Below are positions 20,549 to 37,938 of a stretch of 64,000 nucleotides of DNA, in pieces. Each line of letters opens with the position of its first letter. Position 1 is the first letter of the stretch. The position numbers and the translations under genes were made by a program. The DNA is from Candidatus Omnitrophota bacterium. GTDB lineage: Bacteria; Omnitrophota; Omnitrophia; Omnitrophales; Aquincolibacteriaceae. The stretch is taken from assembly GCA_903884815.1 (NCBI GenBank), contig CAISGE010000002.1:109955-173954 (forward strand). Reading direction: 5' to 3'. The notes beneath the pieces were generated by a model, which ran no database searches, was not told the DNA's origin, and saw only the letters and a program-made list of their open reading frames with translations.

Positions 20549-20620
20549 TGATTTTTCCCTCGATCTTCATACTATTGAAAAGGAAATCATCTGTCAAAAC
20601 GTTATTCCTTGTATATAATA

Positions 20621-20690
20621 GCGTACGGCGTAAGGAGTACGGCGGGAAAAGATGCGCGTTGCGCCGTACCCCGTACGCCTTACTTTTTCC
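20621..20690 (+). promoter_or_regulatory. GC-rich hairpin followed by TTTTT in the glmS 5' leader. Candidate attenuator or regulatory RNA structure.
   Basis: GTACGGCG (20637-44) pairs with CGCCGTAC (20662-69), and GCGTAC (20621-26) pairs with GTACGC (20673-78). Followed by CTTACTTTTTCC, then the RBS GGAGGA and the glmS ATG. A TATAAT hexamer lies at 20615-20620. Confidence 0.3.
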
Positions 20691-20701
20691 GGAGGAAAAT
20701 C

Positions 20702-22546: not shown

Positions 22547-22565
22547 AATAAAAAGGAGACCTCTC

Positions 22566-23099: not shown

Positions 23100-23155
23100 A
23101 AACAGCTGGGGGCCTGCGGATGACGGCTCCCTTTTCCTTTGATGGACGAGGGGAA

Positions 23156-23746
23156 ATGCAAAGAAAAACAATAGCGTTCCTTTTTCTCGCCCTCCTGCTT
23201 TATCCCGCCACACTGCTTTTCTCCGAATCACCCCTGACTGTCACCCGCGTGATCGACAGTGATACCCTGGAACTTTCGAGCGGCGAAACCGTGCGCCTGA
23301 TCGGGATCGATTGTGATGAGCAGGAATACAGTCCAGCAGACGCGGCGTATCTTAACCGTGGCAAGAAGTGGGAACGCGGCCCAGATTCACTAAAACACGC
23401 CAAGGAAGCGGCGGAGTTCACTCGCAAGCTGGTGGAAGGCAAGAAGGTCAGACTAGATTACGATGTCCAGCGGAGGGATAAATACGGGCGATTGTTAGCC
23501 TATGTTTATGTCTTGGTATGCAACAACTGCGATGTTCTTAGGGCGGCAGAATATGAATATCTGGATATGATAGATCCGGACGAAAGCAATGCTGTTTGTA
23601 TCTTTCTTAATGCAACCCTCATCAAGGCTGGCTACGCCCAAGTCGTGACCGTCCCGCCGAGTGTGAAGTACGCTGACCTGTTCGTGAAGCTGGAGAAGGA
23701 AGCCAGGGGGAGGAAAAGGGGGTTGCGAAGTGAGGGTAAAATTTGA
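23156..23746 (+). CDS. Secreted thermonuclease (staphylococcal nuclease, SNase)-like protein, copy 1.
   Basis: Signal peptide. SNase motifs RVIDSDTLEL, TVRLIGIDCDE and DKYGRLLAYVYV. The C-terminal tail is conserved with the other copies (KAGYAQ...VKY..LFVKLEKEAR). Confidence 0.75.
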   Translation: MQRKTIAFLFLALLLYPATLLFSESPLTVTRVIDSDTLELSSGETVRLIGIDCDEQEYSPADAAYLNRGKKWERGPDSLKHAKEAAEFTRKLVEGKKVRLDYDVQRRDKYGRLLAYVYVLVCNNCDVLRAAEYEYLDMIDPDESNAVCIFLNATLIKAGYAQVVTVPPSVKYADLFVKLEKEARGRKRGLRSEGKI

Positions 23747-24861
23747 GCGAAGAACATATGCGGAAATACAAGTATGACAACTTCGGCAATGATCTTGCTT
23801 CTGAGCTCGGGCAGAAAGTTCGATGCACCCGATGTTTGGGGCCGTCCAGCATCAGGAAACAGGATGGCGGCGCCGTGAATAAAGAGCTTCCGTATGACAT
23901 GTATATACATTGGCAGTTATTAAGGGAGTGTAATTTTTCATGTGAATATTGTTATTCTTCCCCGCAGACCGGCCCGGCAAAAAAAGCGGATGTTGCGCGG
24001 ATAGTTCACCGGTTAGATGCTTTTGGGAAGACATCTCTTATTTCATTTACAGGAGGGGAACCTTTTCTTGTTCCGAATTTTATCGAGCTGGTGAAGGAAT
24101 TAACAAAAAGACATTATGTTCGCATCGATACGAATCTCAGCCTTTTAGCAGCTTGCGAGAGCTTTATCAAGGAGGTTGATCCGGAAAGGATTTGCGAGAT
24201 AGTTTTTTCGATTCATGCCGGAGAAAGGGAGAAACGCAAGATGCCGCTGCGGGACTTGTGCGCTCTTGTAAGAAAGTTCCGAGATCGCGGATTTATCATG
24301 ACGGGAAATTATGTCGTCTACCCCACGCTGTTGAAGAGGTTCTCGGATGACATGAAAATATTTCGAGAGAATGCGGTCAGTGTTTTGCCTAGTTTGTTTG
24401 TCGGAAGACAGGGCGGTAAAAATTATCCAATGCATGCCGGCAGGTTAGCTTACGAGCAAAACGCCTTTGATTTGATCTCAGGGATAAATCCAAAGGTAAA
24501 TCTCGTTTTAAACAGGAGCGTCGGCGAATTGTGCCCGGCGGGGGTAAATTCATTTTTTGTTAATTCCGATTATAAGGTTTTTGCCTGTGCGGCTATCCGG
24601 AGGGAAATAGGCGACTTTTGGGGGGATTGGAAGATGTTTCCCAAGGTCGTGCGGTGTCCGATGGAGTATTGTTACTGCCCATTTAATAAACCTTTTGTGG
24701 TGGGTCAGAGGACTCAAATACAGACTTCATTGCTGAAAGACGCTCTCCATCGGAACGGCGAGGCATCCGTTTGGCAATCTAGATTCTTAACAAGGGATAT
24801 GCGGAGAGGGGTAAAAAGGTTTGTCGAGCGCCTTGTTGAAAAGTTCTCGCTGCGTGAATAG
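23743..24861 (+). CDS. Radical SAM enzyme with a C-terminal SPASM/twitch-like Cys cluster, copy 1.
   Basis: CNFSCEYC is a CxxxCxxC radical SAM motif. The C-terminus carries CPAG...C...CPMEYCYCP. The track start is a TTG at 23743 overlapping the SNase stop, and an alternative ATG lies at 23758. Confidence 0.75.
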   Translation: MSEEHMRKYKYDNFGNDLASELGQKVRCTRCLGPSSIRKQDGGAVNKELPYDMYIHWQLLRECNFSCEYCYSSPQTGPAKKADVARIVHRLDAFGKTSLISFTGGEPFLVPNFIELVKELTKRHYVRIDTNLSLLAACESFIKEVDPERICEIVFSIHAGEREKRKMPLRDLCALVRKFRDRGFIMTGNYVVYPTLLKRFSDDMKIFRENAVSVLPSLFVGRQGGKNYPMHAGRLAYEQNAFDLISGINPKVNLVLNRSVGELCPAGVNSFFVNSDYKVFACAAIRREIGDFWGDWKMFPKVVRCPMEYCYCPFNKPFVVGQRTQIQTSLLKDALHRNGEASVWQSRFLTRDMRRGVKRFVERLVEKFSLRE

Positions 24862-24910
24862 GCTTTAAATTGCAGAAGGAAGCACGGGAACAGAAAAGGG
24901 GGATTTGGAA

Positions 24911-25384
24911 ATGAAGAAGTACTTGTTCGCGATCGCGGCATTGTGCCTGGCGGCCACCACCATTGCGGCGGAGAGTCGCGCATCAAACGGATCAACAGAG
25001 ACCCTTAAGAAGGTTAGATCGGTTCTGCCTCAAGGCTGGTTCATTGTCAAAGTTGTGAAAGGGCCGTCTTCTCCGAACCATTACGCGGAGGATGCACAAG
25101 AGGCTGTTGTTGTTTTGATCAGCAATCCATCAATCGATGCGAAAATGAAAAGTAAAGCCAAGATCGGGCCGTACGAGCTCTATCTGATGGACCTTCGCTA
25201 TAAAGAGAAAAGCCATACAGTCTCAGCTCTGCATCCGGAGGTCGCGGAACGGCCTGCGCGATACCTCGGCAGAAGTGAGCATTTTAAAATTTATTGGGGT
25301 GGGGGTATGTGGGGACTCGATCCTGTTGAAAAGAAACTTGAGGCTGACGTCAAACAAGCGTTGAGCATTGCTACGGAAAAGTGA
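24911..25384 (+). CDS. Secreted hypothetical protein.
   Basis: Signal MKKYLFAIAALCLAATTIAAESRA. Preceded by the recurring junction element at 24878-24914. Confidence 0.5.
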   Translation: MKKYLFAIAALCLAATTIAAESRASNGSTETLKKVRSVLPQGWFIVKVVKGPSSPNHYAEDAQEAVVVLISNPSIDAKMKSKAKIGPYELYLMDLRYKEKSHTVSALHPEVAERPARYLGRSEHFKIYWGGGMWGLDPVEKKLEADVKQALSIATEK

Positions 25385-25396
25385 GGAGTCGTTAAA

Positions 25397-26356
25397 ATGA
25401 GGAAGCTATTATTCGTGATCACGGCGCTGTGCCTAGCGGCCTCGGCGGGGTATGGGGAGGAATCTTCCGGGAATTTCCCGTTCAGCAAGATCGAGAGGAG
25501 GGGCGGCGTGGTCCGCCTGCAACTTCCTGACCATGGATTCCGGTGGCTCATAGGTGTAAATACGGAAAACCGCGCGAAGCTCAGAAGGTCGAACTATTCG
25601 GAGGTCGTGGAGTTGAAGACCCGCGGGATCTTGGGTGGGGACAAGCTTTATATGATTGAAAAGCATCAACAGATCGTCATCGAACCTATTTTTCAGGGCA
25701 AAGCCCTTTTTTTAAAGCAAACCGTTAAAACGGATTTGCGTAGCATGGGCGGCTCCGTAAAGATTGAAAAATCCTTTATTCCCGTGCCGGACGAGGGAAA
25801 GCAGCTGCAAGCGAGCCTGGCGCCGGAGGGTTCTTTGGTTGTGAAACGCGTGATCGACGGTGATACCCTGGAACTTTCGAGCGGCGAAACTGTGCGTCTG
25901 ATCGGAATCGATTGTGAGGAAAACGAGTACAGTCCTGCCGAGGCGGTCTATCTTAACCAAGGAAAAAAATGGAAGCGCGCGCCGGGATCTCTGATGCACG
26001 CTAAGGCGTCGGCAGATTTCGCCCGCAAGCTGGTCGAGGGCAAGCAGGTTCGGTTGGAGTACGACGTTCAGAAGAAGGATAAGTCCGGCAGGACGCTGGC
26101 GTATGTTTATCTATTGCCAAGGCAGGCAGAGAATCATGACAAGACCGTTCTTGAATTCGGACGTTTTTTGGATGATGGTTATGGCGGGCCGGGAAAATCG
26201 AGCCTCGTCTTTATCAACGCCACCCTCATCAAGGCTGGCTACGCCCAAGGCATGACCTCCTCCAAGGATGCCATCCCGCCGAATGTGAAGTATCAGGAGT
26301 TGTTTGTGAAGCTGGAGCAGGAAGCCAGAGAAAATAAAAGGGGGTTGTGGAAATGA
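25397..26356 (+). CDS. Secreted SNase-like nuclease with an N-terminal extra domain, copy 2.
   Basis: Signal MRKLLFVITALCLAASAGYG. The C-terminal SNase domain (RVIDGDTLELSSGETVRLIGIDCEENEY...) is nearly identical at the DNA level to copy 1 (25852-25940 versus 23260-23345). Ends ...EARENKRGLWK*. Confidence 0.75.
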   Translation: MRKLLFVITALCLAASAGYGEESSGNFPFSKIERRGGVVRLQLPDHGFRWLIGVNTENRAKLRRSNYSEVVELKTRGILGGDKLYMIEKHQQIVIEPIFQGKALFLKQTVKTDLRSMGGSVKIEKSFIPVPDEGKQLQASLAPEGSLVVKRVIDGDTLELSSGETVRLIGIDCEENEYSPAEAVYLNQGKKWKRAPGSLMHAKASADFARKLVEGKQVRLEYDVQKKDKSGRTLAYVYLLPRQAENHDKTVLEFGRFLDDGYGGPGKSSLVFINATLIKAGYAQGMTSSKDAIPPNVKYQELFVKLEQEARENKRGLWK

Positions 26357-26691
26357 AAAAACAGAAAAATCAGAACGTGGTAACACCAAGCAACGTCCTT
26401 TCTTCTTACGACCCAGTTAAAGTTGCCTTGGCAGAAGGAAATATATACGGAGCAGGCGCTTCGGGGAGATTCAAGAAGAGTTGGGTGACAAGGCTGGGTT
26501 TTATTCTTCTGGCGCTACCGTTTCTTGGCTACGCTATCTTTATGTTTCCTATGATTTATAAGAGCTTGTCTGAAGCCATCAACGTCAAAACAACTGAGGT
26601 TACACTGGCGGTCGGCATTGGAGGCATGCTTCTCGACTTATCCTGCCTTTGGCTGGGACTTAAATTAATCGCAGGTGCGTTAAAGAAATAA
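26353..26691 (+). CDS. Small two-TM membrane protein; hypothetical.
   Basis: An ATGA overlap with the SNase-2 stop, inside the junction element. The hydrophobic helices suggest a membrane protein. Confidence 0.5.
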   Translation: MKKQKNQNVVTPSNVLSSYDPVKVALAEGNIYGAGASGRFKKSWVTRLGFILLALPFLGYAIFMFPMIYKSLSEAINVKTTEVTLAVGIGGMLLDLSCLWLGLKLIAGALKK

Positions 26692-26703
26692 TAGGAGGGG
26701 GTT

Positions 26704-27153
26704 GTGGAAAAGAAAAGGTCAATAGGTGTAATGGTCATTTCTATAGTTAATTTGCTGGTAGGTTTGCCCGTGCTTTTTTTATGCCTCCGTTTTTTCATTT
26801 CAAATTATGAAAAGTTCATATCGCAGCTAGGTGATTTGTCTTTTTTCAGCGTTTTCGTTTTTATACTCTATGTTCTTATGGCGCTAACAGCTGTTTGTTT
26901 CCCCGTCCTATTTAGTTATGCGGGAATTTCAACTTATAATCTCAAGCCTGGTTCCGTAGCCCTCAATAAGGCTATCGCTAAATGGACGATTGTTTTCGTG
27001 GGGGGAGGCGAAGTTATTTTTGCGGTTACGCTTGCACCGCATCTAATGATTAGAATGGAATTCAGCCTTCTTGTGACGCTTGCCGCCGTGCTGTATTTTA
27101 TGTGGGTGCAAATGTATTTCACGCATCCCAAAGTTAAGGAGCAGTTCAAGTAA
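26704..27153 (+). CDS. Four-TM membrane protein, paralog family A (C-terminus ...P.VK.QFK).
   Basis: GTG start after GGGGGTTGTGGAAAAG. The C-terminal THPKVKEQFK is shared with the 30507 and 34426 genes. Confidence 0.5.
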   Translation: MEKKRSIGVMVISIVNLLVGLPVLFLCLRFFISNYEKFISQLGDLSFFSVFVFILYVLMALTAVCFPVLFSYAGISTYNLKPGSVALNKAIAKWTIVFVGGGEVIFAVTLAPHLMIRMEFSLLVTLAAVLYFMWVQMYFTHPKVKEQFK

Positions 27154-27214
27154 GGACCCCGAACCGCAAGGGGCCGCGGCAGGGAGCGCGGGAACAGAAA
27201 AGGAGGTTGTGGAG

Positions 27215-27496
27215 ATGAAAAGGATATTTGTAATAATATTAACATTAAGTATCTTGCTTGGAATTTCTGACGTTGCGTTTGCGAAGCACCATCATTCTAA
27301 AAAAGCAGAGGCCCCGAATAACAAAGAGGATCAAGGGAGGAAGGTGACGTGCCTCGTCAAGGGCGTCCCGCAAATGGTGAGGACAGAAGGCGTTTGTAAG
27401 GATTTTAACGGCACCGTGGTGCCCGAAAAAACTCCTCCAGGAGCAACGGCGGTGCCGGAGAAAAAAATAACGGCGCAAAAAATAGAAAGCAAATAG
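27215..27496 (+). CDS. Small secreted protein (93 aa) with a His-rich segment and 2 Cys; hypothetical.
   Basis: Signal MKRIFVIILTLSILLGISDVAFA. Preceded by the junction element GGGAACAGAAAAGGAGGTTGTGGAGATG. Confidence 0.45.
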   Translation: MKRIFVIILTLSILLGISDVAFAKHHHSKKAEAPNNKEDQGRKVTCLVKGVPQMVRTEGVCKDFNGTVVPEKTPPGATAVPEKKITAQKIESK

Positions 27497-27537
27497 ATCC
27501 CTCGTTATGAATTGAAAATGATCAGAAAGGCAACTCT

Positions 27538-27741
27538 ATGACACGCATAATCTTTTTGGCAGCACTGGTTTTGACCTTCAGCGGTTGTTGCACTTCTCAG
27601 TCGGCGGCGGACTTGCAAATCAGCCAGGACGAGGCGAAGCTGACACGGATGTACCGCGAGTGCATTGAGAAGAATCTTGGCCATGGGGAAGCCATGAGGA
27701 AGGATTGCGAGCCGATCCTTGGCCCCTATGTAAGTCATTAG
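27538..27741 (+). CDS. Small lipoprotein (67 aa) ending ...KDCEPILGPYVSH.
   Basis: Lipobox LTFSGC. The 3' end is repeated at 29254-29310. Confidence 0.4.
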   Translation: MTRIIFLAALVLTFSGCCTSQSAADLQISQDEAKLTRMYRECIEKNLGHGEAMRKDCEPILGPYVSH

Positions 27742-27838
27742 AGGCGGGGGCGACGAAGGCGTTTAACCGGTTGGAGGGTGATGTTGAGTTCGGGGAGATG
27801 ATGGAGGATTAAAAGAGTAAGAAAAAAAGGAGGGTTCT

Positions 27839-28006
27839 ATGAACGGAAGTGATATGACAATGATCGTAACGTATATCGTCGGGAGTCTCCTTGTTTTTCT
27901 CGTTTGCAGAGAAATCGTGTGCTGGTATTTTAAAATGAATGAAGTCACGAAGTTGCTTCGGGAGATCAAGGAATGTTTGAAAAGCCATCCCTCCCTTAAG
28001 TCTTGA
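27839..28006 (+). CDS. 55-aa single-TM peptide (MNGSDMTMIVTYIVGSLLVFLVCREIVCWYFKMNEVTKLLREIKECLKSHPSLKS); hypothetical.
   Basis: A strong RBS AAAAAGGAGGG 7 nt upstream. Below the 60-aa cutoff of the ORF track. Confidence 0.35.
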   Translation: MNGSDMTMIVTYIVGSLLVFLVCREIVCWYFKMNEVTKLLREIKECLKSHPSLKS

Positions 28007-28090
28007 TGGGGGGGGGGAAGAGGCTGCTTCGGGATGCGGGCGTGCATCGTAGTTTATTAAAATGATGAGGCAGCTAAAGGAGAAGGCAAA

Positions 28091-28708
28091 ATGAAGCTAA
28101 AAACAATTTCTATTTTAGGATTGTTACTGGCGCTCAACATGGGCACCGTTTGGGCGGGACAGTATGTTTTTTCCGGGTATGGGAAACGAGTCTTGTTTGG
28201 TTCGATCGACAAATCTCGCATGTGTACCGTGAGCTTCTCTGTGGATGAGACGTTGCCATCGAGTGAAATTGTTGCGACCCTTCGGTTTACGAATACAGGC
28301 AATGCTCCGATGAAAGGCGATCCATTCTTCTCTCAAACAACGCAAATTGTTTCCAAGGATGAGAAGACCTATGAGGTGCCATGGGCGACTGGAATGGTGG
28401 AGTTGAAAGACGGAAGTAAATACGAGATTCCCGGCACAGTGACTCCCGAAAAGGTTGAAGATGTCGTGAAAAATCATCCCGAACTAAGAAAGCCGTCACC
28501 TTTTGAGACATTAGTGGCTCCTCTGGAGGATGACTCGGAGGAGGCTTCTAAAAACAAAGAAGTTCGACTTATTAACCCGGGCGGCATAGCGGAGAAGGTG
28601 CTGTATATCAAAGATCCGCTTATTCGGGCTGTGATAACATCAAATAATGTGAAGAGTGTCATTTTAAATTGCGGCATGGGAAAATTCGTTCTTACCCAAC
28701 AGTCTTAA
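28091..28708 (+). CDS. Secreted hypothetical protein (205 aa).
   Basis: Signal MKLKTISILGLLLALNMGTVWA. RBS AAAGGAGAAGG. Confidence 0.5.
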   Translation: MKLKTISILGLLLALNMGTVWAGQYVFSGYGKRVLFGSIDKSRMCTVSFSVDETLPSSEIVATLRFTNTGNAPMKGDPFFSQTTQIVSKDEKTYEVPWATGMVELKDGSKYEIPGTVTPEKVEDVVKNHPELRKPSPFETLVAPLEDDSEEASKNKEVRLINPGGIAEKVLYIKDPLIRAVITSNNVKSVILNCGMGKFVLTQQS

Positions 28709-28791
28709 AACATGAGATGAAAACGGGCGTTTATCAAGAGGATGCGGCGGATTAAAGGAAGAAATAACAGGAGCCGTTGGGGAAGGACATA

Positions 28792-28920
28792 ATGCGCTAT
28801 GCCATTGGCCTGATAAGTAAGTTGGATGGTCCCACGATAATGTTTCTGGGCATTTTCTCCCTTACTATCATTGTCATTTGCATGGTTGGGATATCTTTTC
28901 CAAAGAAGCGGGGAAAATAG
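28792..28920 (+). CDS. 42-aa hydrophobic peptide; hypothetical.
   Basis: RBS GGGGAAGGA upstream. A single TM. Very short, so the confidence is low. Confidence 0.2.
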   Translation: MRYAIGLISKLDGPTIMFLGIFSLTIIVICMVGISFPKKRGK

Positions 28921-28950
28921 GAGAGGGAGAACCTACGAAGGAGAGGATAT

Positions 28951-29253
28951 ATGCTGTTCGGATGTTTCGTGACCAGAGCTGAGGATCAAAGCGGTGCTAT
29001 GATGCGGATAATTCTGTTGTTATCTGGGATTTTGTTTTTGGCGGGCTGTGCGACATCGACATCCCAAACTGCTTTTGTGGATGCCGGGGGGCATGCGTGC
29101 ACGAAAGCCTTTAAAAAAGTCGCGCCTTTTGGAATTGCGATCAGCGAAAGCGTCGAATGCTCGGAGATTGCTACTTTTGCTCCCGCCGAATCGTCCAAGC
29201 CCTCATCCCCGAGGAAAGCAAAACAAAAGAAACATTGGTTCTGGCCATTTTAG
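28951..29253 (+). CDS. Lipoprotein (100 aa). Its stop is immediately followed, in frame, by a remnant EDKDCEPVLGP*.
   Basis: RBS AGGAGAGGA. Lipobox LFLAGC. The in-frame remnant after the stop matches the 27538 gene's C-terminus. Confidence 0.4.
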   Translation: MLFGCFVTRAEDQSGAMMRIILLLSGILFLAGCATSTSQTAFVDAGGHACTKAFKKVAPFGIAISESVECSEIATFAPAESSKPSSPRKAKQKKHWFWPF

Positions 29254-29340
29254 GAGGACAAGGATTGCGAGCCGGTCCTTGGCCCGTAGGGAAGTCATGA
29301 GAGGCAGAGTCGGGGAGCCGTAGAACCAAGCGAGGGGCGT

Positions 29341-30393
29341 ATGAACGCGATCGCGAAGGACGTTTATCAGAAGCTGGTGCGGGAGATCGGCGAGATCTAT
29401 GAGGGTGCGCGTAGGACCCTGGTCGAGGCCTATTGGAAGATCGGACAGAGGATCGTTCGGGTCGAACAGCAGGGCGCGGTCAAAGCCGTTTACGGTTCCG
29501 GTCTCCTTCAAAAAATCTCCGAAGAGCTTACGCGAAAGTGCGGTCCTGGATTTTCCGAATCGAACCTCCGGCGCATGCGGCAGTTCTACCTGAGTTACCC
29601 AATTCGTGCGGCGCCGCACGAATTGACCTGGACCCAATACTCGGAGCTTCTCCCCGTCGGGAATGCCGCAGTTCGGAAACGGCTTGAAAAGCAGGCCCTG
29701 AGGGAAGGACTTTCTCACAAAGCAATCCGCAAGCTTGTCCAGTCCGAACGCGTTCGCGAAGAAGCTCCTTCCCCCTCCGCAAGTCCCGAGTCCCGAGCGA
29801 CGAGTCCCGATCTTTTAATCCCCCTCCGCGGAAAGCTTCACACGCATCAGATCGCCCTCAAAGGGGGCGCGCTTTATCTCGACCTGGGCTTCCGTATTTA
29901 CCGCCCGCTGACGCCAGACCAAGCTGCGGCGGGGTTCAAAGAAGGCGATATTGTCAACGTGGAACCCCTTCAACCTACGCGGTTGAAAAGGTCGGAGTCT
30001 GGCTCCGGAGCCCTTTATACGTATGAAGCGGCGCTTGACCACATCTATGACGGCGACACGCAGTGGTATTTTATTTTTACGGGGCGCGGAGAAGGGCCGG
30101 GAAATAAAAGTGCCGGCTTTATGAAAAACGACAAGCTCCGGCTCCGCGGGATCGACTGTCCGGAGCTTAAGTACGCGGCGGGGAAGGCGGCGAAGCGCTT
30201 CGTGGTGGAGCTTTTCAGCCGGGCGGTGGGGATGACCGTCACGACGACGAAGCCCGACAAGTACGACCGCTACCTTTCCGATATCTTTCTCCGGATGAAG
30301 GACGGGGCGGAGCTTTTCCTCAATAACGAACTTCTCGCGGCCGGCCACGCCTGCTTGTACAGCGATCCCAAGCCCAAGGATTGGGAAGATTAA
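29341..30393 (+). CDS. Fusion protein with an N-terminal YhcG/DUF1016-like domain and a C-terminal SNase-like nuclease domain (no signal peptide).
   Basis: N-terminus LVEAYWKIGQRIVRVEQQGA...GFSESNLRRMRQFYLSYP is DUF1016_N-like. C-terminus HIYDGDTQWYF...LRLRGIDCPELKY...KYDRYLSDIF is SNase-like. Confidence 0.65.
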   Translation: MNAIAKDVYQKLVREIGEIYEGARRTLVEAYWKIGQRIVRVEQQGAVKAVYGSGLLQKISEELTRKCGPGFSESNLRRMRQFYLSYPIRAAPHELTWTQYSELLPVGNAAVRKRLEKQALREGLSHKAIRKLVQSERVREEAPSPSASPESRATSPDLLIPLRGKLHTHQIALKGGALYLDLGFRIYRPLTPDQAAAGFKEGDIVNVEPLQPTRLKRSESGSGALYTYEAALDHIYDGDTQWYFIFTGRGEGPGNKSAGFMKNDKLRLRGIDCPELKYAAGKAAKRFVVELFSRAVGMTVTTTKPDKYDRYLSDIFLRMKDGAELFLNNELLAAGHACLYSDPKPKDWED

Positions 30394-30435
30394 CGCGGGA
30401 AAAAAGAAAATGGGGTTAGGTCTTGTTTTCTTTGG

Positions 30436-30510
30436 GTCGTAAAGTATCTGGAGCTGTTCGTGAAGCTGGAGAAGGAAGCGAGAGAAAACGAAAGGGGGCT
30501 TTGGAAATGA
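30436..30510 (+). repeat. Orphan SNase 3'-end fragment (encodes VVKYLELFVKLEKEARENERGLWK*) carrying the RBS and start of the downstream gene.
   Basis: About 85% DNA identity to 26285-26356, the 3' end of SNase copy 2. No upstream SNase body. Confidence 0.6.
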
Positions 30511-30971
30511 AAACAGGAGCTGTGGTATTTATTAAAAAAGGAGAACAGAAAAAGAAACTACCCAAGGGTGTGAAAATAATTGGCATTTATCACAAGTGGT
30601 TTGGTGGAATTTTGGGTTTCTTCTCATCGCTTGCATATCTTTTTGAGCTTTTTTTTCCAAATTTTCTTCCTCAGTTTATTGGGAGGATGCCGCAACACGG
30701 GGAGAACATATTTTATGTAAAAATTTACTGTATCCTTAGTCTAATACTTTCACCTATCTGCTATATTTTGGGAAGCCAACTTTTGCAATTCAAGGAAAAA
30801 GGAAGGAAAGGCATTTTATATCTTACCGTTTTTTACATATTTCTTACTCCTTGGCTTAATGTGTTAGCGTATAACATAAAATCACCAAGCAGAATCATTT
30901 TGTCAGTATTGTTGCAGTCGTTGGTCATTTGCTATCTTAGCCGTCCCAACGTCAAAGCCCAGTTCCAATAA
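30507..30971 (+). CDS. Multi-pass membrane protein, paralog family A (C-terminus RPNVKAQFQ).
   Basis: An ATGA overlap with the orphan fragment's stop. The C-terminus is shared with 26704 and 34426. Confidence 0.5.
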   Translation: MKTGAVVFIKKGEQKKKLPKGVKIIGIYHKWFGGILGFFSSLAYLFELFFPNFLPQFIGRMPQHGENIFYVKIYCILSLILSPICYILGSQLLQFKEKGRKGILYLTVFYIFLTPWLNVLAYNIKSPSRIILSVLLQSLVICYLSRPNVKAQFQ

Positions 30972-31029
30972 GGACCCCGAACTACATGGGTACGTGGCGG
31001 GGAGCACGAGAACAGAAAAGGGGGTTGTG

Positions 31030-31674
31030 ATGGAGATGAATGATGCGGAAAAGTTGAAGGGAACTGGCGGGTGGTTGGGGCTATACATTCTCTTGGGATT
31101 TTTGGACCTTATATCGGTTCCGGTTATTTGTTTGTTTCCAACCGTTGAAACTGTTTCGCGTGCAGTTCTGATCATATGTAATGCAATAGCCTGCTTTTTG
31201 CTCATAAAGAAAAATAGTAATGCAGTGAAATGGACACGGCTTTTTCTATGGAGCCAAATGGGCGTGGATGCTGCTTTTTTCCTTTTCCATGCGCCTGATT
31301 TTTTATGGACATGGTCTTCCGGCAGGAATTACTACGAAGCTTTTTTTGCAATTAGAGGAACCCTGGGGGGTATTTTTTCGGCATGGATCTGGTTATCATA
31401 TTTTGAAAAATCAGAACGAGTAAAATTGAACTTTCCCGACTCTTTGCTCCCCGCACCCAGTAACCAATCGGTACGATTATGGAATTGGGTGGGTGTGATT
31501 GTGATATTAATTTACCTCCCACTCACAGTTTATGGGCAGGTATTAAAGGCCCAAATAAAACCGATCATAAGGGAATCTATAAAAAAAGGCGGGACATCTG
31601 TGGGCAGCCTGCTGAGAAATCCATTGGCATTACAGAAAGAGGCTCTCCGGAAATTGTGGGAATCGAAACATTGA
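31030..31674 (+). CDS. Multi-pass membrane protein (215 aa), possibly DUF2569-like.
   Basis: N-terminal GTGGWLGLYILLGF and 5-6 hydrophobic helices. Preceded by a conserved spacer GGACCCCGAAC...GAACAGAAAAGGGGGTTGTG. Confidence 0.45.
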   Translation: MEMNDAEKLKGTGGWLGLYILLGFLDLISVPVICLFPTVETVSRAVLIICNAIACFLLIKKNSNAVKWTRLFLWSQMGVDAAFFLFHAPDFLWTWSSGRNYYEAFFAIRGTLGGIFSAWIWLSYFEKSERVKLNFPDSLLPAPSNQSVRLWNWVGVIVILIYLPLTVYGQVLKAQIKPIIRESIKKGGTSVGSLLRNPLALQKEALRKLWESKH

Positions 31675-31681
31675 GAAAACT

Positions 31682-31861
31682 ATGACCGAAGACCCCAGCA
31701 AGAATAAACCCACCAATCTCGACATCCCCGGATCTGAGCCGGAAGCGAATTCTGAGGCGAAGGTCACTTTGCTGAAGCGCGGACTTTTGATCCTGATCTT
31801 TTTCGGCATAGGCATGCTCATCGCGACCGCCTGGTATATGACGAAGCGGTATTGGCGTTGA
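31682..31861 (+). CDS. 59-aa peptide with an acidic N-terminus and a C-terminal TM (…LLKRGLLILIFFGIGMLIATAWYMTKRYWR).
   Basis: Intact ORF. A frameshifted copy lies at 35486-35664. Confidence 0.35.
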   Translation: MTEDPSKNKPTNLDIPGSEPEANSEAKVTLLKRGLLILIFFGIGMLIATAWYMTKRYWR

Positions 31862-31927
31862 AAATGCAAGCACGGGGACAGACAAGGGGATTGTGGAAAT
31901 GAAGCTATTTTTCAAAAGGAGAATGAC

Positions 31928-32989
31928 TTGAGTCATTCCTGCCGCGCCATTTCTTTTTTGCCGATCACCGCTGTTCTTGAAATGACTTATCGGTGTAATC
32001 ACCAGTGCCAGTTCTGTTCCTGTCCTTGGATGACGGAGGAGCATGTCTCCATGAAGGGGAAAGAGCTTTCCACGGTTCAATGGAAGGCCGTTCTTGATCT
32101 TTTGGCGCGGCAGGGCGTTCACCAAATCTGTTTTACGGGCGGTGAAGCGCTATTACGCCCCGATCTTCCCGAGATCATGGCTTACGCTTCACGGCTGAAG
32201 GTTAAAGTGATCAAGGATAAAGACGGTCAACTGGCGGAACACATAGCGTCCCCCAAACTATACCTTTTATCGAATGGTGCGTTGGTCGACGATGCTATTC
32301 TCGACCTCTGCAAGAGAGATGACATCCAGCTGAGCATCAGCATGCCCGGGCTGCGCACTTTTGCCGAATTGACCGGCGGGGGTGACGTGAACAAAATACT
32401 GCGTATCTTCGAGAAAGCCCGGGAGCGCGGCCTTTCAACGGTGGTGGGCATCACTGTGACAAAGAAGAATCTTTTCGAACTCTACGAAACGATTTCAGCG
32501 GCCTTTCTTGCGGGGGCGACCCAGCTTTTATTAAATCGATTTCTTGAAGGCGGTCGCGGGCGCCGCTACGCCCGGGAACTTGCTTTAAGCCGCGCAGAAT
32601 TGATCGAAATGCTCGATGTCGCGGAACAAGCGCTTCATGATGCGGGCCGTTATGGCTCGGTGGGGACCGAGCTGCCGCTGTGCTTGTTCACCTCTGGTAA
32701 ATATAAGAGATTAGAGGTTTCAACGGGATGTTCTGCGGCCAAGGGTTTTTTTGTGATCGGTCCATCGGGAAAAGTGAGGGTTTGCAATCATTCGCCGGTG
32801 GAGCTGGCGCACTATTCGGAGATCGAAACCTTGAAAATGGATCCGTATTGGATGAAATTCGCCCGGAGTGATTACTTACCCGCCATGTGTGCGGGGTGTG
32901 AGGATGCCGGTCGTTGTGCCGGTGGATGCCGGGAAGCCGCGCATATTGTCGCGGGCGCGATCAACGCGCCGGACGCTCTGCTCATTTAA
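31928..32989 (+). CDS. Radical SAM/SPASM-domain enzyme (peptide or protein-modifying maturase, or anSME-like), copy 2.
   Basis: CNHQCQFC radical SAM motif and a full SPASM motif CAGCEDAGRCAGGC (CX2CX5CX3C), plus further upstream Cys. TTG start. Confidence 0.8.
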   Translation: MSHSCRAISFLPITAVLEMTYRCNHQCQFCSCPWMTEEHVSMKGKELSTVQWKAVLDLLARQGVHQICFTGGEALLRPDLPEIMAYASRLKVKVIKDKDGQLAEHIASPKLYLLSNGALVDDAILDLCKRDDIQLSISMPGLRTFAELTGGGDVNKILRIFEKARERGLSTVVGITVTKKNLFELYETISAAFLAGATQLLLNRFLEGGRGRRYARELALSRAELIEMLDVAEQALHDAGRYGSVGTELPLCLFTSGKYKRLEVSTGCSAAKGFFVIGPSGKVRVCNHSPVELAHYSEIETLKMDPYWMKFARSDYLPAMCAGCEDAGRCAGGCREAAHIVAGAINAPDALLI

Positions 32990-33003
32990 AGAAAGGAGAC
33001 AGG

Positions 33004-33645
33004 ATGCTTTTTATTCAAATCGCTTTGGTCACGATGCTTCTTCTTGGGCTCACGGTTTTATCCGCTTGCACAAAGCAGGCAAATCAATCAGATGCCAAGA
33101 GTAAGCAGGCGGTTACGTCCGAGCAAATCCAAGCCATGTCGCGTGAGGATATACAAAGAGCCTTGAAAAGGATCGAATCGAGTCATACGCCAACGTCGCA
33201 AAAGATGGGCGCGATGTGTTATGAACCAGTAGCTCCCGCATCTGGATACTTCGAATATGTTTGCCCCGTTGACGGCGATAAAACAGTTTTTTCGCTAAAA
33301 TCCAATGCATTTGATCAGGCAACCCATTTGCAGGAGCTTAGAGGCTCGGTCGAAAGATTGCGTCCGCTTGCTAAGGGGATCGCCCTATCACTTGATGAAG
33401 GCAGGCTTTGCGCCAAGTGTCATCCGGCGCTTCCTGATGCGGAAAGATTTGTTTCCCTGGTTCTTCAATATGCCGATGGAAGAACGGTCCGTACGGATCG
33501 GGTGACTCCTGAGGACCTCAAATATCTGACGGGGTTCTTTTCCGGCGGATTAAGCTATTTATCTCAAGGTCCGGATCAGGAGCCCCTGAAGCCTAAAGTG
33601 GCTCGCCTCAAGGAGCTGTTGGGTGAGAAAGGAGTAGGCACATGA
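33004..33645 (+). CDS. Lipoprotein (213 aa) with 4 Cys, including a CAKCH (CXXCH) motif.
   Basis: RBS AAAGGAGA. Lipobox LTVLSAC. Paralogous to 33642-34262. Confidence 0.5.
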   Translation: MLFIQIALVTMLLLGLTVLSACTKQANQSDAKSKQAVTSEQIQAMSREDIQRALKRIESSHTPTSQKMGAMCYEPVAPASGYFEYVCPVDGDKTVFSLKSNAFDQATHLQELRGSVERLRPLAKGIALSLDEGRLCAKCHPALPDAERFVSLVLQYADGRTVRTDRVTPEDLKYLTGFFSGGLSYLSQGPDQEPLKPKVARLKELLGEKGVGT

Positions 33646-34262
33646 TGTTCTTGCAAATTGTTTTTGTCGTGATGCTTGTTCTGGGGCTCACGGTTTTATC
33701 GGCTCGTGCGCAGCAGGCGGATCCGCCCGACACCAAGAGTAAGCAGGCGGTGACTTCCGAGAAAATCCAAGCCATGTCGCGTGAGGATATACAAAAAGCC
33801 TTGAAAAGGATCGAGTCGAGTAATCCGCCGGCGAAGAAGATGGGCGCGATGTGTTATAAAATGGGTGAAACACCTGAAAACTTTGAATATGTTTGCCCCG
33901 TTGACGGGGAGAAAACCGTCTATTCACGAGCCCAAGCATCTAAACAGGCAGTAGATTTGCAGGGGCTCAGAAGTTCGATCGAAAAATTGCGCCCGTTTGC
34001 AAAGGGGATCTCCCTATCGCTCGATGAGAGCAAACTCTGCGCCAAGTGTAATCCGGCACTCCCCGATGCGGAAAGATACGTTTCCCTTGTCCTTCAATAT
34101 GCCGACGGGAGAACGGTCCGCACAGACAGGGTGACTCCCGAAGATCTGCGTTATTTGACAGGGTTCTTTTCTGGAGGATTAAGCTATGAAACTTTTAATG
34201 AGGGGCAGGACCCCCTCAAGCCTGTTGAAGGTCGGTTGAAACAGCTTTTGGGGGAGCAGTAA
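33642..34262 (+). CDS. Secreted paralog of the 33004 lipoprotein (CAKCN in place of CAKCH).
   Basis: An ATGA overlap. Long stretches of near-identical DNA with the upstream paralog. Confidence 0.5.
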   Translation: MMFLQIVFVVMLVLGLTVLSARAQQADPPDTKSKQAVTSEKIQAMSREDIQKALKRIESSNPPAKKMGAMCYKMGETPENFEYVCPVDGEKTVYSRAQASKQAVDLQGLRSSIEKLRPFAKGISLSLDESKLCAKCNPALPDAERYVSLVLQYADGRTVRTDRVTPEDLRYLTGFFSGGLSYETFNEGQDPLKPVEGRLKQLLGEQ

Positions 34263-34353
34263 TTCCGCCTTCATAAAATGTCCGCTGTTTTTGGGAAGGT
34301 CCGTATGCGGAAGAGCGGGAACGGAAAAGAAGGCTAGTGCCTGTTTTCTAAGG

Positions 34354-34428
34354 GTCGTAAAGTATCTGGAGCTGTTTCGTGAAGCTGGAGAAGGAAGCGA
34401 GAGAAAATAAAAGGGGGTTGTGGAGATG
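34354..34428 (+). repeat. Second orphan SNase 3'-end fragment (frameshifted) carrying the start of the downstream gene.
   Basis: Near-identical to 30436-30510 apart from a 1-nt insertion (gctgtttcgtg versus gctgttcgtg). Confidence 0.6.
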
Positions 34429-34911
34429 AGAAAAATATCAGCAGGATTGAGGGGGACAGGATGGCTGTTGGTATTATATGGATTGATTTCTTTTTGCGGG
34501 CTTGCGGTTAGCTTCTTTTTAGGTGCTCTCCTTAGTATACGCCAAGCACCAATGTCGGAGTCACAATACCGTACATCTGTGGACCTTGTTACGAGTGTTT
34601 TTATGCCTCTTCCGAATAAATTTGTCGCAATAGGAATGCTTATAGGTGGGATAGGGGTATTAAGGCTAAAGTCATGGGGAAGATGGCTTGTGGTAGGAGC
34701 TATCCTTACCGATTTTATTCAAAAATCATTCTGGATGTACGCCTCTTCACGATTCAACCTAGATTTTATTTTTCAAACCGAATTGACTGTTTTTGTATTT
34801 TATTCTTCTCTTTTCTTGGAGTTGCTGGTTCTTTTGTATTTTATGCGCCCCAATGTAAAGATACAGTTCAAACAAGGAACCACGGGAACAGAAAAGGGGG
34901 TTGTGGTGTGA
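34426..34911 (+). CDS. Multi-pass membrane protein, paralog family A (…RPNVKIQFK then GTTGTEKGVVV encoded by the junction element).
   Basis: N-terminal GTGWLLVLYG. The C-terminal family motif. Its 3' end runs through the GGGAACAGAAAAGGGGGTTGTGG element. Confidence 0.5.
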   Translation: MRKISAGLRGTGWLLVLYGLISFCGLAVSFFLGALLSIRQAPMSESQYRTSVDLVTSVFMPLPNKFVAIGMLIGGIGVLRLKSWGRWLVVGAILTDFIQKSFWMYASSRFNLDFIFQTELTVFVFYSSLFLELLVLLYFMRPNVKIQFKQGTTGTEKGVVV

Positions 34912-35489
34912 ATGCTAAGGTTAGAGCTTTCATTGGCGGGGCACTCGGAGTTGTCGTAATTTTCATAATAACATTCAGTTCTATTGGATACGGGGAGGAA
35001 ACAAAAAGGGCGTACTATGCGAATGGGAAGTTGCAGGGCGAGATGATTTATAAGAACGAAAGTAATGAGTCTCTGTCTAAGGAATATTACGAAAGCGGGG
35101 AATTACAAGGCGAGACGCTTTTCAAGAACGGAATGCTTGAAGGGCCGTATAAACTTTATTACAGAAACGGACATGTGCGGGAAGATGGATCTTATAAAAA
35201 TGGCTATCGTGAAGGGCCGTATAAAGAATATTACGAAAGCGGGCAATTGAAAGAGGCGAAAGCTTATGTGAATGGAAAACCAGAGGGGCCGAGTGAAGAG
35301 TATTACCCGAGCGGGCAATTGCATGTCGAGAGAAATTTCAAGAACGGAATGCAAGAGGGACTGATGAAGTCTTATTACGAAAGCGGGCAATTGCAATCCG
35401 AGGTATCTTACGAGAAGGGAGAGCCTGGCGAGGGAACGATAAAGCTCTATGGTCTAGACGGAAAATTAATGTCCGTGAGAAAACCATGA
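34908..35489 (+). CDS. YwqK/MORN-variant repeat protein with an N-terminal TM anchor.
   Basis: GTG start overlapping the upstream stop. About 8 repeats of the form Y(K/E)NG.(L/R)EGPYKEYYESGQL. Confidence 0.55.
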   Translation: MNAKVRAFIGGALGVVVIFIITFSSIGYGEETKRAYYANGKLQGEMIYKNESNESLSKEYYESGELQGETLFKNGMLEGPYKLYYRNGHVREDGSYKNGYREGPYKEYYESGQLKEAKAYVNGKPEGPSEEYYPSGQLHVERNFKNGMQEGLMKSYYESGQLQSEVSYEKGEPGEGTIKLYGLDGKLMSVRKP

Positions 35490-35664
35490 CTCCAGACCCT
35501 ATCAAAAAGCAACTCTCCGACCCCGCGATCCCAGGATCTGAGACGGAAGCGAATTCTGAGGCGAAGGTCACTCTGCTGAAAGCGGACTTTCGATCCTGAT
35601 CTTCCTCGGCATAGGTATGTTGATTGCAACTGCCTGGTTGATGGCGAAACGGTATTGGCGTTGA
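35486..35664 (+). pseudogene. Frameshifted copy of the 59-aa peptide gene (31682-31861).
   Basis: About 85% DNA identity to 31712-31861, with a 1-nt deletion producing a premature stop (…KVTLLKADFRS*). Confidence 0.4.
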
Positions 35665-35763
35665 AGATTGAATTACGGGAACAAAAAATGCGTCCCCGTG
35701 GGACGCCGTTCCGTCCCGAGGTTATTCAGAGTTTATCGTGGTGTCTCTAAAATGGAGGTGAGT

Positions 35764-36246
35764 ATGAAAATGTTTCTTTGGGCAGTCGTTTTGGGTGCGT
35801 TGTTCACACAGATGCCGACTTGCGTTTATTGCGAAACGAATAGCCTTATCGGAGAGTGGGAAGTCGTGTCGCAAGTTCCTTCGCAAAAGGAGCTGTTATC
35901 ATACACAAAGAAACCTGCGGGATTCGAGGGCGTGAATAATGATGACGTCGTTGTCCCCGAGACTAAACAGACGGTAACCATTACAGAAAACAATCTGATA
36001 AATAAAACGGTCGGAGAAGGCGTAAACATAAACGATGAAGAACCGTATAAATTAGAAGGCGATAAAATCATCATGATCCCGCCTGAGGGCGAAGCTGCGG
36101 AAAGTCCGTTCTATGTTTATGCCAAGCAGTTTATTCCGGCTTATACGTCTTTCAAGTTTGATGGGGAGAATCTCATACTGACGACGAGCGAAATCCCGGG
36201 ATATCAAAATAAAACAATAACCAAGGTGTTAAAACGCATTAAATAA
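35764..36246 (+). CDS. Secreted hypothetical protein.
   Basis: Signal MKMFLWAVVLGALFTQMPTCVYC. RBS GGAGGTG. The start is ambiguous between 35752, 35764 and 35770. Confidence 0.45.
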   Translation: MKMFLWAVVLGALFTQMPTCVYCETNSLIGEWEVVSQVPSQKELLSYTKKPAGFEGVNNDDVVVPETKQTVTITENNLINKTVGEGVNINDEEPYKLEGDKIIMIPPEGEAAESPFYVYAKQFIPAYTSFKFDGENLILTTSEIPGYQNKTITKVLKRIK

Positions 36247-36350
36247 GCACCAGTTTTTATTTTACAGCCCGGCGGTTCTGCGGCCAGTTGGAAAGACCGG
36301 ACGCAGTCTCGTTTTCAGGAAGGACGACTCAACGGCGGGAAGGATGAAAG

Positions 36351-36695
36351 ATGATTAAAAAATCCAAAGGTGCAAGGATGGTTTTAATGTTTGTGGCCGT
36401 TTTGCTATTGGGAGGACTCCTTGCTTTCGCAGTTACGGCCAATAAGAAAGAGACGCCCGCGGAGAGAATTGACCGGCTGGGACGAGAGATGGCGGCCGAC
36501 AAGGCTGAGGCGGTACGCCGCGCAAAAAAACTAGGGATCCCGGTACGCGAGACCTATTCCGACGGGAGAACGATTGAGCTAATGCGGTTCGACGGTGATC
36601 GTCCCGTGTTTTATACGACAGACCAGGTAACCCATCCGAGGCCGTCGGCCCCTCCCGTTGAAGTAAACCAAACTTCGTCTGTGAAGGAGGGGTAA
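36351..36695 (+). CDS. Membrane-anchored or secreted hypothetical protein (114 aa).
   Basis: The N-terminal hydrophobic segment VLMFVAVLLLGGLLAFAV. Confidence 0.4.
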   Translation: MIKKSKGARMVLMFVAVLLLGGLLAFAVTANKKETPAERIDRLGREMAADKAEAVRRAKKLGIPVRETYSDGRTIELMRFDGDRPVFYTTDQVTHPRPSAPPVEVNQTSSVKEG

Positions 36696-36828
36696 GCTAA
36701 CGCTTCCCCGCGCCTGCCCGCCAACGCATTGTGGCGGGGGATGCCGTTGGGTTCACACGGTAGTAGAATGGAACCCTTCGACGCGGATCCGCGGAAAGCA
36801 GGTATGTCAAAACAAGGAGGCGATTGAA

Positions 36829-37938
36829 ATGAAAGAGGACAAATTGTTCGAATCTTTTTCGATCGGGGGCATGCGCCTTAAAAACAGGATCGTCCTTGCT
36901 CCCATGACTCGGGCACGGGCGGGCACAAGCCGCGTCCCCAACGAGCTGATGGCGGAATATTATCTCCAGCGCTCCGGCGCCGGGATGCTGATCACGGAAG
37001 CGACCGTGATCTCGGAGCAGGGGATCGGCTGGGGCGGGACTCCGGGGATCTACACGCAGGCCATGGCGGAGGGATGGAAAAAGATCACTCAAACGGTCCA
37101 GGCGGGCGGGGCGCCGGTCATTCTTCAGCTCTGGCATTGCGGGAGGGTCTCGCACAGTGATTTCTTGGGAGGCGCGCTTCCGGTTTCAGCTTCGGCCGTG
37201 AAGATCGATAACGGCGAGCTGGTCCGTACGCCACTCGGTAAAAAACCTTATGAGGTCCCGCGCGCTTTGACGACAGGTGAAGTCAAGGCGGTGGTGCAGG
37301 ATTTCCGGGCCGCGGCGGTCCACGCGAAATCGGCCGGCTTCTCGGGCATCGAGATCCACGGGGCGAATGGTTATCTGATCAATCAATTTCTCGATCCGAA
37401 AGCGAACCTGCGCACGGATGCTTACGGGGGGGACGTCCTGAACCGCTTCCGTTTCCTGAGAGAGATCCTGGAAGCGGTGCTGGAGGTTTGGCGCCCCGAG
37501 GAAGTGGGCGTACGCATTTCTCCGAACGGGGTCTTTAACGATATGGGCAGTGACGATTTCAGGGAGACCTATCTTTTTGTCGCGAAAGAATTAAATCAGC
37601 TGCGGCTGGGCTATCTGCACGTCATGGACGGTCTGGCCTTTGGTTTTCATGGCAAAGGAGAGCCGATGAAGCTTTCGGAGTTCCGGGGGATCTTTTCCGG
37701 GGCGATCCTCGGTAATTGTGGGTACACGCGTGAACTGGCAGAGCAGCGGGTCGGGCAGGGCGACGCGGACCTGATCGCCTTCGGCCGTCCGTTTATCACC
37801 AACCCGGACCTGGCCGACCGCTTCAAAAACGACTGGCCCCTCAATCCCTTCAGCGATATGTCCCAATGGTACGGCGGGGGAGCGGCCGGGTATACGGATT
37901 ATTTGCCGTTTGCTGCGGCCCAATCGGCTCAGGGGTGA
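36829..37938 (+). CDS. Old Yellow Enzyme family NADH:flavin oxidoreductase (alkene reductase/NemA-like).
   Basis: Full-length OYE match (LKNRIVLAPMTRARA..., HGANGYLINQFLD...). RBS AAGGAGG. Confidence 0.85.
   Translation: MKEDKLFESFSIGGMRLKNRIVLAPMTRARAGTSRVPNELMAEYYLQRSGAGMLITEATVISEQGIGWGGTPGIYTQAMAEGWKKITQTVQAGGAPVILQLWHCGRVSHSDFLGGALPVSASAVKIDNGELVRTPLGKKPYEVPRALTTGEVKAVVQDFRAAAVHAKSAGFSGIEIHGANGYLINQFLDPKANLRTDAYGGDVLNRFRFLREILEAVLEVWRPEEVGVRISPNGVFNDMGSDDFRETYLFVAKELNQLRLGYLHVMDGLAFGFHGKGEPMKLSEFRGIFSGAILGNCGYTRELAEQRVGQGDADLIAFGRPFITNPDLADRFKNDWPLNPFSDMSQWYGGGAAGYTDYLPFAAAQSAQG

Follow-up and report, generated by a model that had tools for sequence, protein, structure and literature searches.

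The 64,000-nucleotide (nt) stretch analysed here (the window; positions 109,955 to 173,954 of contig CAISGE010000002.1, Candidatus Omnitrophota) contains two short fragments, at 30436-30510 (fragment 1) and 34354-34428 (fragment 2), which represent non-coding copies of the 3'-terminal ~24 codons of a secreted SNase gene from this Omnitrophota lineage. These orphan tails lack the nuclease body, share a 5' breakpoint, are conserved at the nucleotide level and recur in other species. Their position in front of unrelated genes and their conservation suggest that the tail acts as the ribosome-binding leader of the downstream gene and has been kept for that reason, a reading to which a probability of roughly 0.55 is assigned.

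Origin of the two orphan tails

Read in the frame of the nuclease, fragment 1 is translated as VVKYLELFVKLEKEARENERGLWK, followed by a stop codon. Fragment 2 yields the same peptide with one residue difference after a +1 shift, the source of which is one extra T (a TTT run at 34375-34377 vs. TT in fragment 1); the 1-nt insertion reported in an initial annotation of this DNA is thereby borne out. Both fragments are homologous to the C-terminal helix region of SNases (PF00565; ...VKYxxLFxxxExEARxxxRGLW), and the tail lies within the SNase domain, as the Pfam match of the intact genes reaches profile position 104-106 of 107. BLASTN searches within the island that surrounds the fragments align the tail of the intact gene SNase2 (26285-26361) to fragment 1 with 86.7% identity (E 7e-20) and to fragment 2 with 89.7% identity (E 4e-23). 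A tail profile based solely on seven intact SNase tails, of which the window supplied two and other contigs five, matches fragment 1 at E 5e-17 and fragment 2 at E 3e-15, and shuffled-sequence controls gave zero matches. The derivation of both fragments from SNase 3' ends, already proposed by the initial annotation, is therefore confirmed. Of the three SNase genes to which it had referred for comparison, two carry the tail (SNase1, 23156-23746, and SNase2, 25397-26356), whereas SNase3 (29341-30393) ends differently.

The annotation had further stated that the nuclease body is missing while the junction with the downstream gene was kept, and this is what is seen. Fragment 1 ends in the ATG of A2 (30507-30971) and fragment 2 in the ATG of A3 (34426-34911), both of which are genes for small multi-pass membrane proteins, and neither fragment shares an open reading frame (ORF) with a catalytic SNase body: the stop codon of a complete, different gene lies 42 nt upstream of fragment 1, and fragment 2 is frameshifted. 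Fragment 2 is preceded by 91 nt of intergenic DNA and, beyond it, by an unrelated gene of 206 amino acids (aa). The claim that no SNase ORF lies upstream thus holds for fragment 2 but not for fragment 1, which follows the SNase-domain ORF of SNase3, a complete gene of another family. In-frame stop codons were said to lie immediately upstream of both fragments; for fragment 2, this is not the case, since the nearest one is ~40 codons away. The stretch up to this stop shows no SNase similarity and contains no ORF of at least 50 aa. A mechanical ORF (30423-30971) crosses fragment 1 in another frame. As the same frame is closed by a TAA in fragment 2 and in the SNase2 tail, this read-through extension is not conserved. 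In contig L004, two G-to-T differences from the window were found at the equivalents of 30480 and 30497, inside fragment 1 and ~150 nt from the contig end, which could reflect strain variation or an assembly error at the repeat.

The proximity of SNase3 leads to a further explanation, namely that fragment 1 is the true C-terminus of SNase3, reached by stop-codon read-through or cut off by a recent nonsense mutation. Fragment 1 indeed lies in the frame of SNase3 with a single TAA in between, and the Pfam SNase match of SNase3 halts at profile position 78 of 107. However, SNase3 has 820 homologues at E <=1e-5. Hundreds of homologues are 320-360 aa long, and the closest thirty-odd terminate at the same residues, ...GHARLYxDPxPEDWGD, matching the SNase3 end. 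Translation past the SNase3 stop codon does not extend the domain (1-80 of 107), the same upstream 40 nt are found at fragment 2, where no SNase lies upstream, and a common frame is expected by chance in one of three cases. Together, the ends of the homologues and the lack of any gain in the Pfam match effectively refute read-through from SNase3 into fragment 1.

The fragments descend from one copied unit

The two fragments had been regarded as footprints of deletion or recombination. Two independent deletions in situ are contradicted by their 5' boundaries: homology to intact tails starts at the same base in fragments 1 and 2, and the similarity between both copies continues into ~40 nt 5' of the tail, with 83% identity over a 119-nt alignment of 30395-30513 and 34315-34432 (BLASTN). 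The common 5' breakpoint and the ~40 nt of shared upstream non-SNase sequence indicate that one truncated unit was copied; the participation of recombination or duplication, which the initial annotation had also put forward, is supported. No intact SNase was found at the fragment positions in related strains, where the annotation had proposed to look for one. The contigs recovered through SNase2 and A3 contain no intact SNase at the fragment sites and, like all contigs with the neighbouring genes, represent the same strain at an identity of at least 99.85%; the syntenic relative L009/L010 stops just past its SNase1 orthologue.

The two units diverge very unevenly. Their tails are 93% identical (5 substitutions and 1 indel in 72 nt), the upstream hairpin part is ~70% identical, and the downstream genes A2 and A3 can be aligned over their last ~22 residues only. 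A duplicate in neutral decay would be expected to diverge to a similar degree over its whole length.

According to fold predictions, an A-tract, a hairpin and a T-tract are located directly 5' of both long fragments. The inner stem of the hairpin differs on both sides between the copies; with two copies at hand, these differences may be compensatory, and the hairpin could serve as a weak terminator or an RNA processing site. A scan for sigma-70 promoters and intrinsic terminators gave no match inside the fragments, and its overall counts equalled the expectation from shuffled sequences.

Conservation of the tail at the nucleotide level

The tail is conserved as DNA or RNA, beyond the level of the protein. 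Codons were compared among seven SNase genes with 53% protein identity in their bodies. Where a residue is identical, the codon is identical as well in 0.776 of the tail comparisons, whereas the body predicts a rate of 0.49 for these amino acids; in two protein blocks of equal conservation, the rates are 0.43 and 0.57. The orphans of the window and of other species do not look like decaying relics, and their match to the terminal-tail consensus is as good as that of coding tails (57-61 of 66 nt for orphans, 55-61 of 66 nt for intact terminal tails). Contig L023 contains both an internal tail, which is still coding and is not followed by a gene start, and an orphan copy in front of an A1-like gene. 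The internal tail retains 50 of 66 nt with many synonymous changes, whereas the orphan keeps 57 of 66 nt canonical despite an in-frame TAA. A low score in the tail profile was likewise obtained for the internal tail in L020.

The predicted folds of the tail region do not exceed those of shuffled sequences in stability (z -1.1 to +1.0), and no Rfam match was obtained in 22000-37500 at E values up to 1. A conserved RNA structure in the tail was rejected on the basis of these near-zero fold z-scores and the missing Rfam match. A tail without significant predicted structure is compatible with an open region for the loading of ribosomes.

The conservation also bears on the explanation that the fragments are neutral, functionless pseudogene remnants of recent deletions or duplications, which are simply too young to have decayed. 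The frameshift in fragment 2 and the stop codon in the L023 orphan would be in line with such an origin, and segmental duplications are common in the island (e.g., 32990-33627 and 33626-34256 with 77% identity). On the other hand, orphans are present in at least four other contigs, some of which clearly belong to other species, and their 5' ends fall within ~10 nt. Moreover, the orphans are as near to the consensus as coding tails, and the flanks that were copied along with them are far more diverged (70% upstream, unalignable downstream). Neutral remnants are thus an unlikely explanation.

Tail-derived junctions in the island and in other Omnitrophota

The two fragments belong to a set of nine tail-derived junctions, which comprises two intact tails, two long fragments and five short cores, all located on the plus strand at 23.7-34.9 kb of the window (Table 1). 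The short cores correspond to the last ~40 nt of the tail with the consensus GGAAGCaCGGGAACAGAAAAGGGGGTTGTGGAAATGA, reading EAREQKRGLWK and a stop codon, and are found at 24868, 27180, 31003, 31862 and 34874. Pairwise BLASTN comparisons of these cores gave E values of 1e-4 to 1e-6, and the three cores that follow genes of family A (A1, A2 and A3) align locally to the SNase2 tail with z values of 8.6-10.8. Eight of the nine junctions run up to the next gene's start codon (ATG or GTG), which is preceded by GGGGG or GGAGG at a distance of 7-9 nt; only the diverged SNase1 tail stops 12 nt short of the following ATG. The fragments and short cores thus combine a Shine-Dalgarno sequence at proper spacing with a start codon at their 3' edge. 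Apart from one mini-ORF of 10 codons, all genes opened by the eight junctions encode membrane or signal-peptide proteins; in SNase2, the ATG at 26353 within the end of the gene opens a 112-aa membrane protein gene (26353-26691).

The proteins A1, A2 and A3 have little in common beyond a C-terminal RPNVKxQF motif within their last ~22 residues, and each has its own orthologue elsewhere. The orthologue of A1 in L023 is preceded by a full orphan tail. The possibility that the family-A C-terminus represents a degraded tail start (PPNVKYQELF) was rejected, as nucleotide alignments were no better than those of shuffled sequences (p 0.07-0.98).

Orphan tails were also identified in four other Omnitrophota contigs, as long tails in L015 and L023 and as short cores in L013, L015, L023 and L034. 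The long orphan of L023, which contains the in-frame TAA, matches the tail profile at E 5e-20, and the orphan region of L015 lies 0.7 kb downstream of a DUF1016_N-SNase gene. The short core of L013 (position 1159) is nearly identical to the core at 24868 of the window. Three independently placed long orphans start within ~10 nt of each other, at the PNVKY codons. A pattern scan of the GTDB genomes revealed two relevant loci only. The corresponding scan of metagenomes revealed five stretches, three of which are relevant (L015 and L019, which cover the same region, and L016, which is the L013 contig), while L017 is ambiguous and L018 is probably a chance match. In L017 (OGVK01010081.1, a 1.4-kb contig), a 26-codon ORF at 250-345 of the oriented sequence ends in REYRKAREQKRGY and a stop codon, contains the 20-nt sequence of the short core without mismatch and has another ATG behind it; it may be another tail-derived junction or a chance occurrence. 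A literature search on Omnitrophota and nucleases yielded nothing relevant among the listed titles and abstracts.

Repeated junctions of this kind could also be the docking sites of a mobile cassette system, that is, an integron-like array in which each cassette is bounded by a tail copy and SNase tails are the points of excision and insertion of promoterless genes, mediated by a yet unrecognised site-specific recombinase or by homologous recombination of circular intermediates (Campbell type). Several features agree with this idea: nine junction repeats of the same orientation are spread over an array of unrelated small genes 12 kb in length, direct copies of GGGGGTTGTGGAAA lie on both sides of the 112-aa gene (26353-26691), the Cys-rich extension of the L023 nuclease sits between two tail copies, short cores are nearly identical across species (24868 of the window and 1159 of L013), and several assemblies break within the island. 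However, any repeat would be expected to cause such breaks. Pfam detected no domain of an integrase, transposase or recombinase in 40 ORFs scanned in the window, which did not include every small ORF beyond the island, or in the genes called within 10 kb on either side in related loci. The tails lack an attC-type inverted repeat or hairpin, with fold z-scores in the range given above, and viral contigs gave zero matches. All contigs of the same strain share a single arrangement, and one short core is placed orthologously in two species, which fits vertical inheritance. A cassette system is thus possible but rather improbable, and an integron or mobile element was rejected on account of the missing recombinase domains among the scanned ORFs and the missing matches in viral contigs. 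A more specific version, in which an integrase-free system driven by homology operates in Omnitrophota and the nuclease 3' end serves both as docking site and as expression signal for genes of small membrane and secreted proteins, is regarded as unlikely. If it applied, the capture, duplication and swapping of promoterless genes would build variable islands of surface proteins in an integron-like manner.

The tail as a putative portable translation leader

In the favoured reading, the tail would have two functions in an intact gene: it encodes the C-terminal helix of the nuclease and would double as the leader of the next gene. As such a leader, it would comprise a purine-rich stretch, for which no significant structure is predicted, and behind this the strong Shine-Dalgarno sequence AAAGGGGG together with an ATG overlapping with the stop codon of the nuclease (ATGA). 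When the nuclease body is lost or separated, the tail would persist, as the small membrane or secreted protein gene downstream would need it for translation. One truncated unit consisting of hairpin and tail would then have been copied and would now precede two different membrane protein genes, while a shorter version, the last ~40 nt, would head five other gene starts in the island. Repeats in the same orientation would, in addition, provide homology for RecA-type recombination and thus allow the deletion, duplication or swapping of the cassettes between them. The leader function is inferred from position and conservation, and the role in recombination is likewise putative. A leader that overlaps the nuclease C-terminus in intact operons would explain the conservation at synonymous sites, and a leader that survives without the nuclease body would explain the orphans and their common 5' limit.

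A number of observations weigh against this interpretation. In L014, the canonical tail bases are kept despite a C-terminal extension of the SNase and the lack of an adjacent start codon, and L034 contains a terminal tail without an overlapping gene; nucleotide conservation therefore tracks a downstream start imperfectly. The contrast between internal and orphan tails is drawn from two internal examples. The conservation ~30-65 nt 5' of the Shine-Dalgarno sequence exceeds what a ribosome-binding site needs, and the signature of purifying selection might also result from recent horizontal spread or gene conversion. With regard to the proposed recombination, the contigs of the same strain show no structural variants.

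If the tail indeed functions as a leader, a piece of a protein-coding gene would have been taken over as a portable leader for its neighbours and would have outlasted its parent gene. This would account for a class of apparent pseudogene fragments in Omnitrophota, which annotation pipelines should then not call decay. The tails would also mark a variable island of small envelope proteins in a phylum that is thought to include host-dependent or predatory nanobacteria, in which surface variation may matter. The repeats account for the assembly breaks in the region.

Relation to known repeat and module systems

The initial annotation had compared the fragments to the orphan modules of polymorphic toxin and immunity loci. 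Orphan cdiA-CT/cdiI modules of contact-dependent inhibition (CDI) systems and rhs-CT/immunity modules likewise consist of truncated pieces with a short block of homology to a full-length gene, are arranged in the same orientation before small variable genes and allow a swap of partners by homologous recombination. In CDI and Rhs modules, the homology block lies at the 5' edge of the variable toxin domain and recombination changes the toxin. In contrast, the block described here is the invariant 3' end of a small secreted enzyme and falls together with the putative ribosome-binding leader of the gene that follows. The SNases, with 196 and 319 aa, do not have the architecture of a full-length multidomain toxin, in which secretion or trafficking domains form the N-terminus and a variable toxin the C-terminus. 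It is very improbable that the island is a polymorphic toxin-immunity locus in which the SNase is the toxin, the membrane proteins confer immunity and the orphan tails are used for switching. The presence of a nuclease and of repeated homology handles beside variable small genes would suit such a locus. However, the SNases are signal-peptide enzymes of 175-320 aa without trafficking or pre-toxin domains, and the conserved handle is located at their 3' end, so that recombination leaves the nuclease unchanged. The orphans hold only the conserved 24-codon tail and no toxin domain, variable or otherwise, and the genes after the tails are heterogeneous (membrane, secreted, MORN-repeat, Zn-ribbon and DUF2007 proteins). 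PADLOC and NCBIfam gave no assignment of toxin or immunity type. The proposed likeness is thus not upheld.

In integron arrays with their attC sites and in the recombinase-associated immunity gene arrays of Bacteroidales, small unrelated genes of the same orientation are bounded by a conserved junction, as is the case here. The attC sites of integrons are located after the ORF of the cassette. Unlike in integrons, no adjacent IntI with an attI site was identified, as Pfam gave no integrase or tyrosine recombinase among the ORFs scanned. The junction lacks an attC-like imperfect palindrome, the sole hairpin being located 5' of the tail in the two long fragments; it is derived from coding sequence and includes a Shine-Dalgarno sequence and a start codon.

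Gene pairs coupled by ATGA and their retained remnants are similar insofar as the downstream gene has its ribosome-binding site and start codon inside the 3' end of the upstream gene, a segment that outlives the latter. In contrast to relics of coupled pairs, the segment described here has a length of 40-75 nt and shows synonymous-site conservation between species, and unlike one-off relics it is present nine-fold in one island and as an orphan in several species. Repetitive extragenic palindromic (REP) sequences, bacterial interspersed mosaic elements (BIMEs) and miniature inverted-repeat transposable elements (MITEs) are also short multi-copy repeats between genes. The tails, however, are not palindromic, occupy a single strand, keep a fixed register with the start codon that follows them and, within the window, are restricted to one island.

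Features of the island and related loci

By the names that its homologues carry, the window belongs to Candidatus Omnitrophota. The island spans ~13 kb and is flanked by glmS and a Zn-ribbon gene (20609-23099) on one side and by an old-yellow-enzyme gene (36829-37938) on the other. It encodes two secreted SNases, the DUF1016_N-SNase fusion, two radical SAM enzymes and a MORN-repeat protein as well as many small membrane or signal-peptide proteins without family assignment. SNase1 and SNase2 each combine a signal peptide with one SNase domain, and conservation is highest at their C-terminus. The Pfam SNase profile is matched at positions 1-104 of 107 by SNase1 and 1-106 of 107 by SNase2, and the tail profile matches them at E 1.3e-19 and 2.6e-22, respectively; the start codon of SNase1 was taken from the gene calls in L001.

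Table 1. Tail-derived junctions, associated genes and related loci. Coordinates are positions of the window.
Feature	Coordinates	Strand	Description
Fragment-1 unit	30395-30513	+	A-tract/hairpin/T-tract 30403-30433; orphan long tail 30436-30510; Shine-Dalgarno AAAGGGGG; A2 ATG at 30507
Fragment-2 unit	34315-34432	+	Hairpin 34323-34349; orphan long tail 34354-34428 (extra T); Shine-Dalgarno; A3 ATG at 34426
SNase1	23156-23746	+	196 aa; secreted thermonuclease with signal peptide; long tail 23654-23730 with diverged end RGLRSEGKI and stop
SNase2	25397-26356	+	319 aa; secreted thermonuclease; canonical long tail 26276-26355 ending ATGA
SNase3	29341-30393	+	DUF1016_N-SNase fusion; complete member of a separate, widespread Omnitrophota family
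A1	26704-27153	+	149-aa membrane protein; starts with GTG; only the 3'-most ~17 nt of a tail precede it (26693-26709; AGGAGGGGGTTGTGGAA)
A2	30507-30971	+	154-aa multi-pass membrane protein; C-terminus ...SRPNVKAQFQ and stop
A3	34426-34911	+	161-aa membrane protein; ORF runs into the next short core; A3-like homologue P0245
Short orphan core	24868-24913	+	Reads KEAREQKRGIWK and stop; ends in ATG 24911 of a 157-aa secreted protein; intact-tail profile E 0.006
Short orphan core after A1 3' end	27180-27217	+	Ends in ATG 27215 of a 93-aa secreted protein; L034 core at orthologous position
Short orphan core after A2 3' end	31003-31032	+	Ends in ATG 31030 of a 214-aa membrane protein
Short orphan core	31862-31899	+	Reads MQARGQTRGLWK and stop; ATG 31897 opens a 10-codon mini-ORF before radical SAM gene 31928-32989
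Short orphan core at A3 3' end	34874-34910	+	Ends in GTG 34908 of the MORN-repeat protein
L013			GTDB Omnitrophota metagenome-assembled genome; terminal SNase tail, collapsed family-A remnant, then short core before a small membrane protein
L015			Orphan long tail (E 7e-21) before a Zn-ribbon gene, then short core before a secreted protein
L023			SNase with internal tail (Cys-rich extension), then directly orphan long tail before an A1-like gene, then short cores
L034			Short core before the orthologue of the 93-aa gene of the window; position orthologous to the 27180 core

With its N-terminal DUF1016_N domain, SNase3 matches PDC-S02, a candidate defence family of PADLOC (E 4e-32), and in L015, too, a DUF1016_N-SNase gene precedes an orphan tail at a short distance. 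Fragment 2 directly follows two tandem paralogous genes (32990-33627 and 33626-34256; 77% nucleotide identity) for proteins of 213 and 206 aa, which possess signal peptides and a conserved C-terminal half and have no Pfam match. Of a direct repeat of 46-53 nt (27700-27752 and 29260-29312; 85-89% identical), one copy lies in the terminal part of a 67-aa ORF and the second right before SNase3.

At 31682-32989, a 59-aa ORF with one hydrophobic segment is followed by a short core, the 10-codon mini-ORF and a radical SAM/SPASM protein. The latter (31928-32989) resembles peptide maturases, with all NCBIfam matches below the curated cut-off, and behind the MORN gene, at 35476-35683, lies a paralogue of the 59-aa ORF region with 81% identity. 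From their sequences, the 59-aa ORF and the radical SAM/SPASM protein may represent a precursor and maturase pair similar to those of ribosomally synthesized and post-translationally modified peptides. Outside the island, 49350-59435 is occupied by a single plus-strand ORF of 3361 aa.

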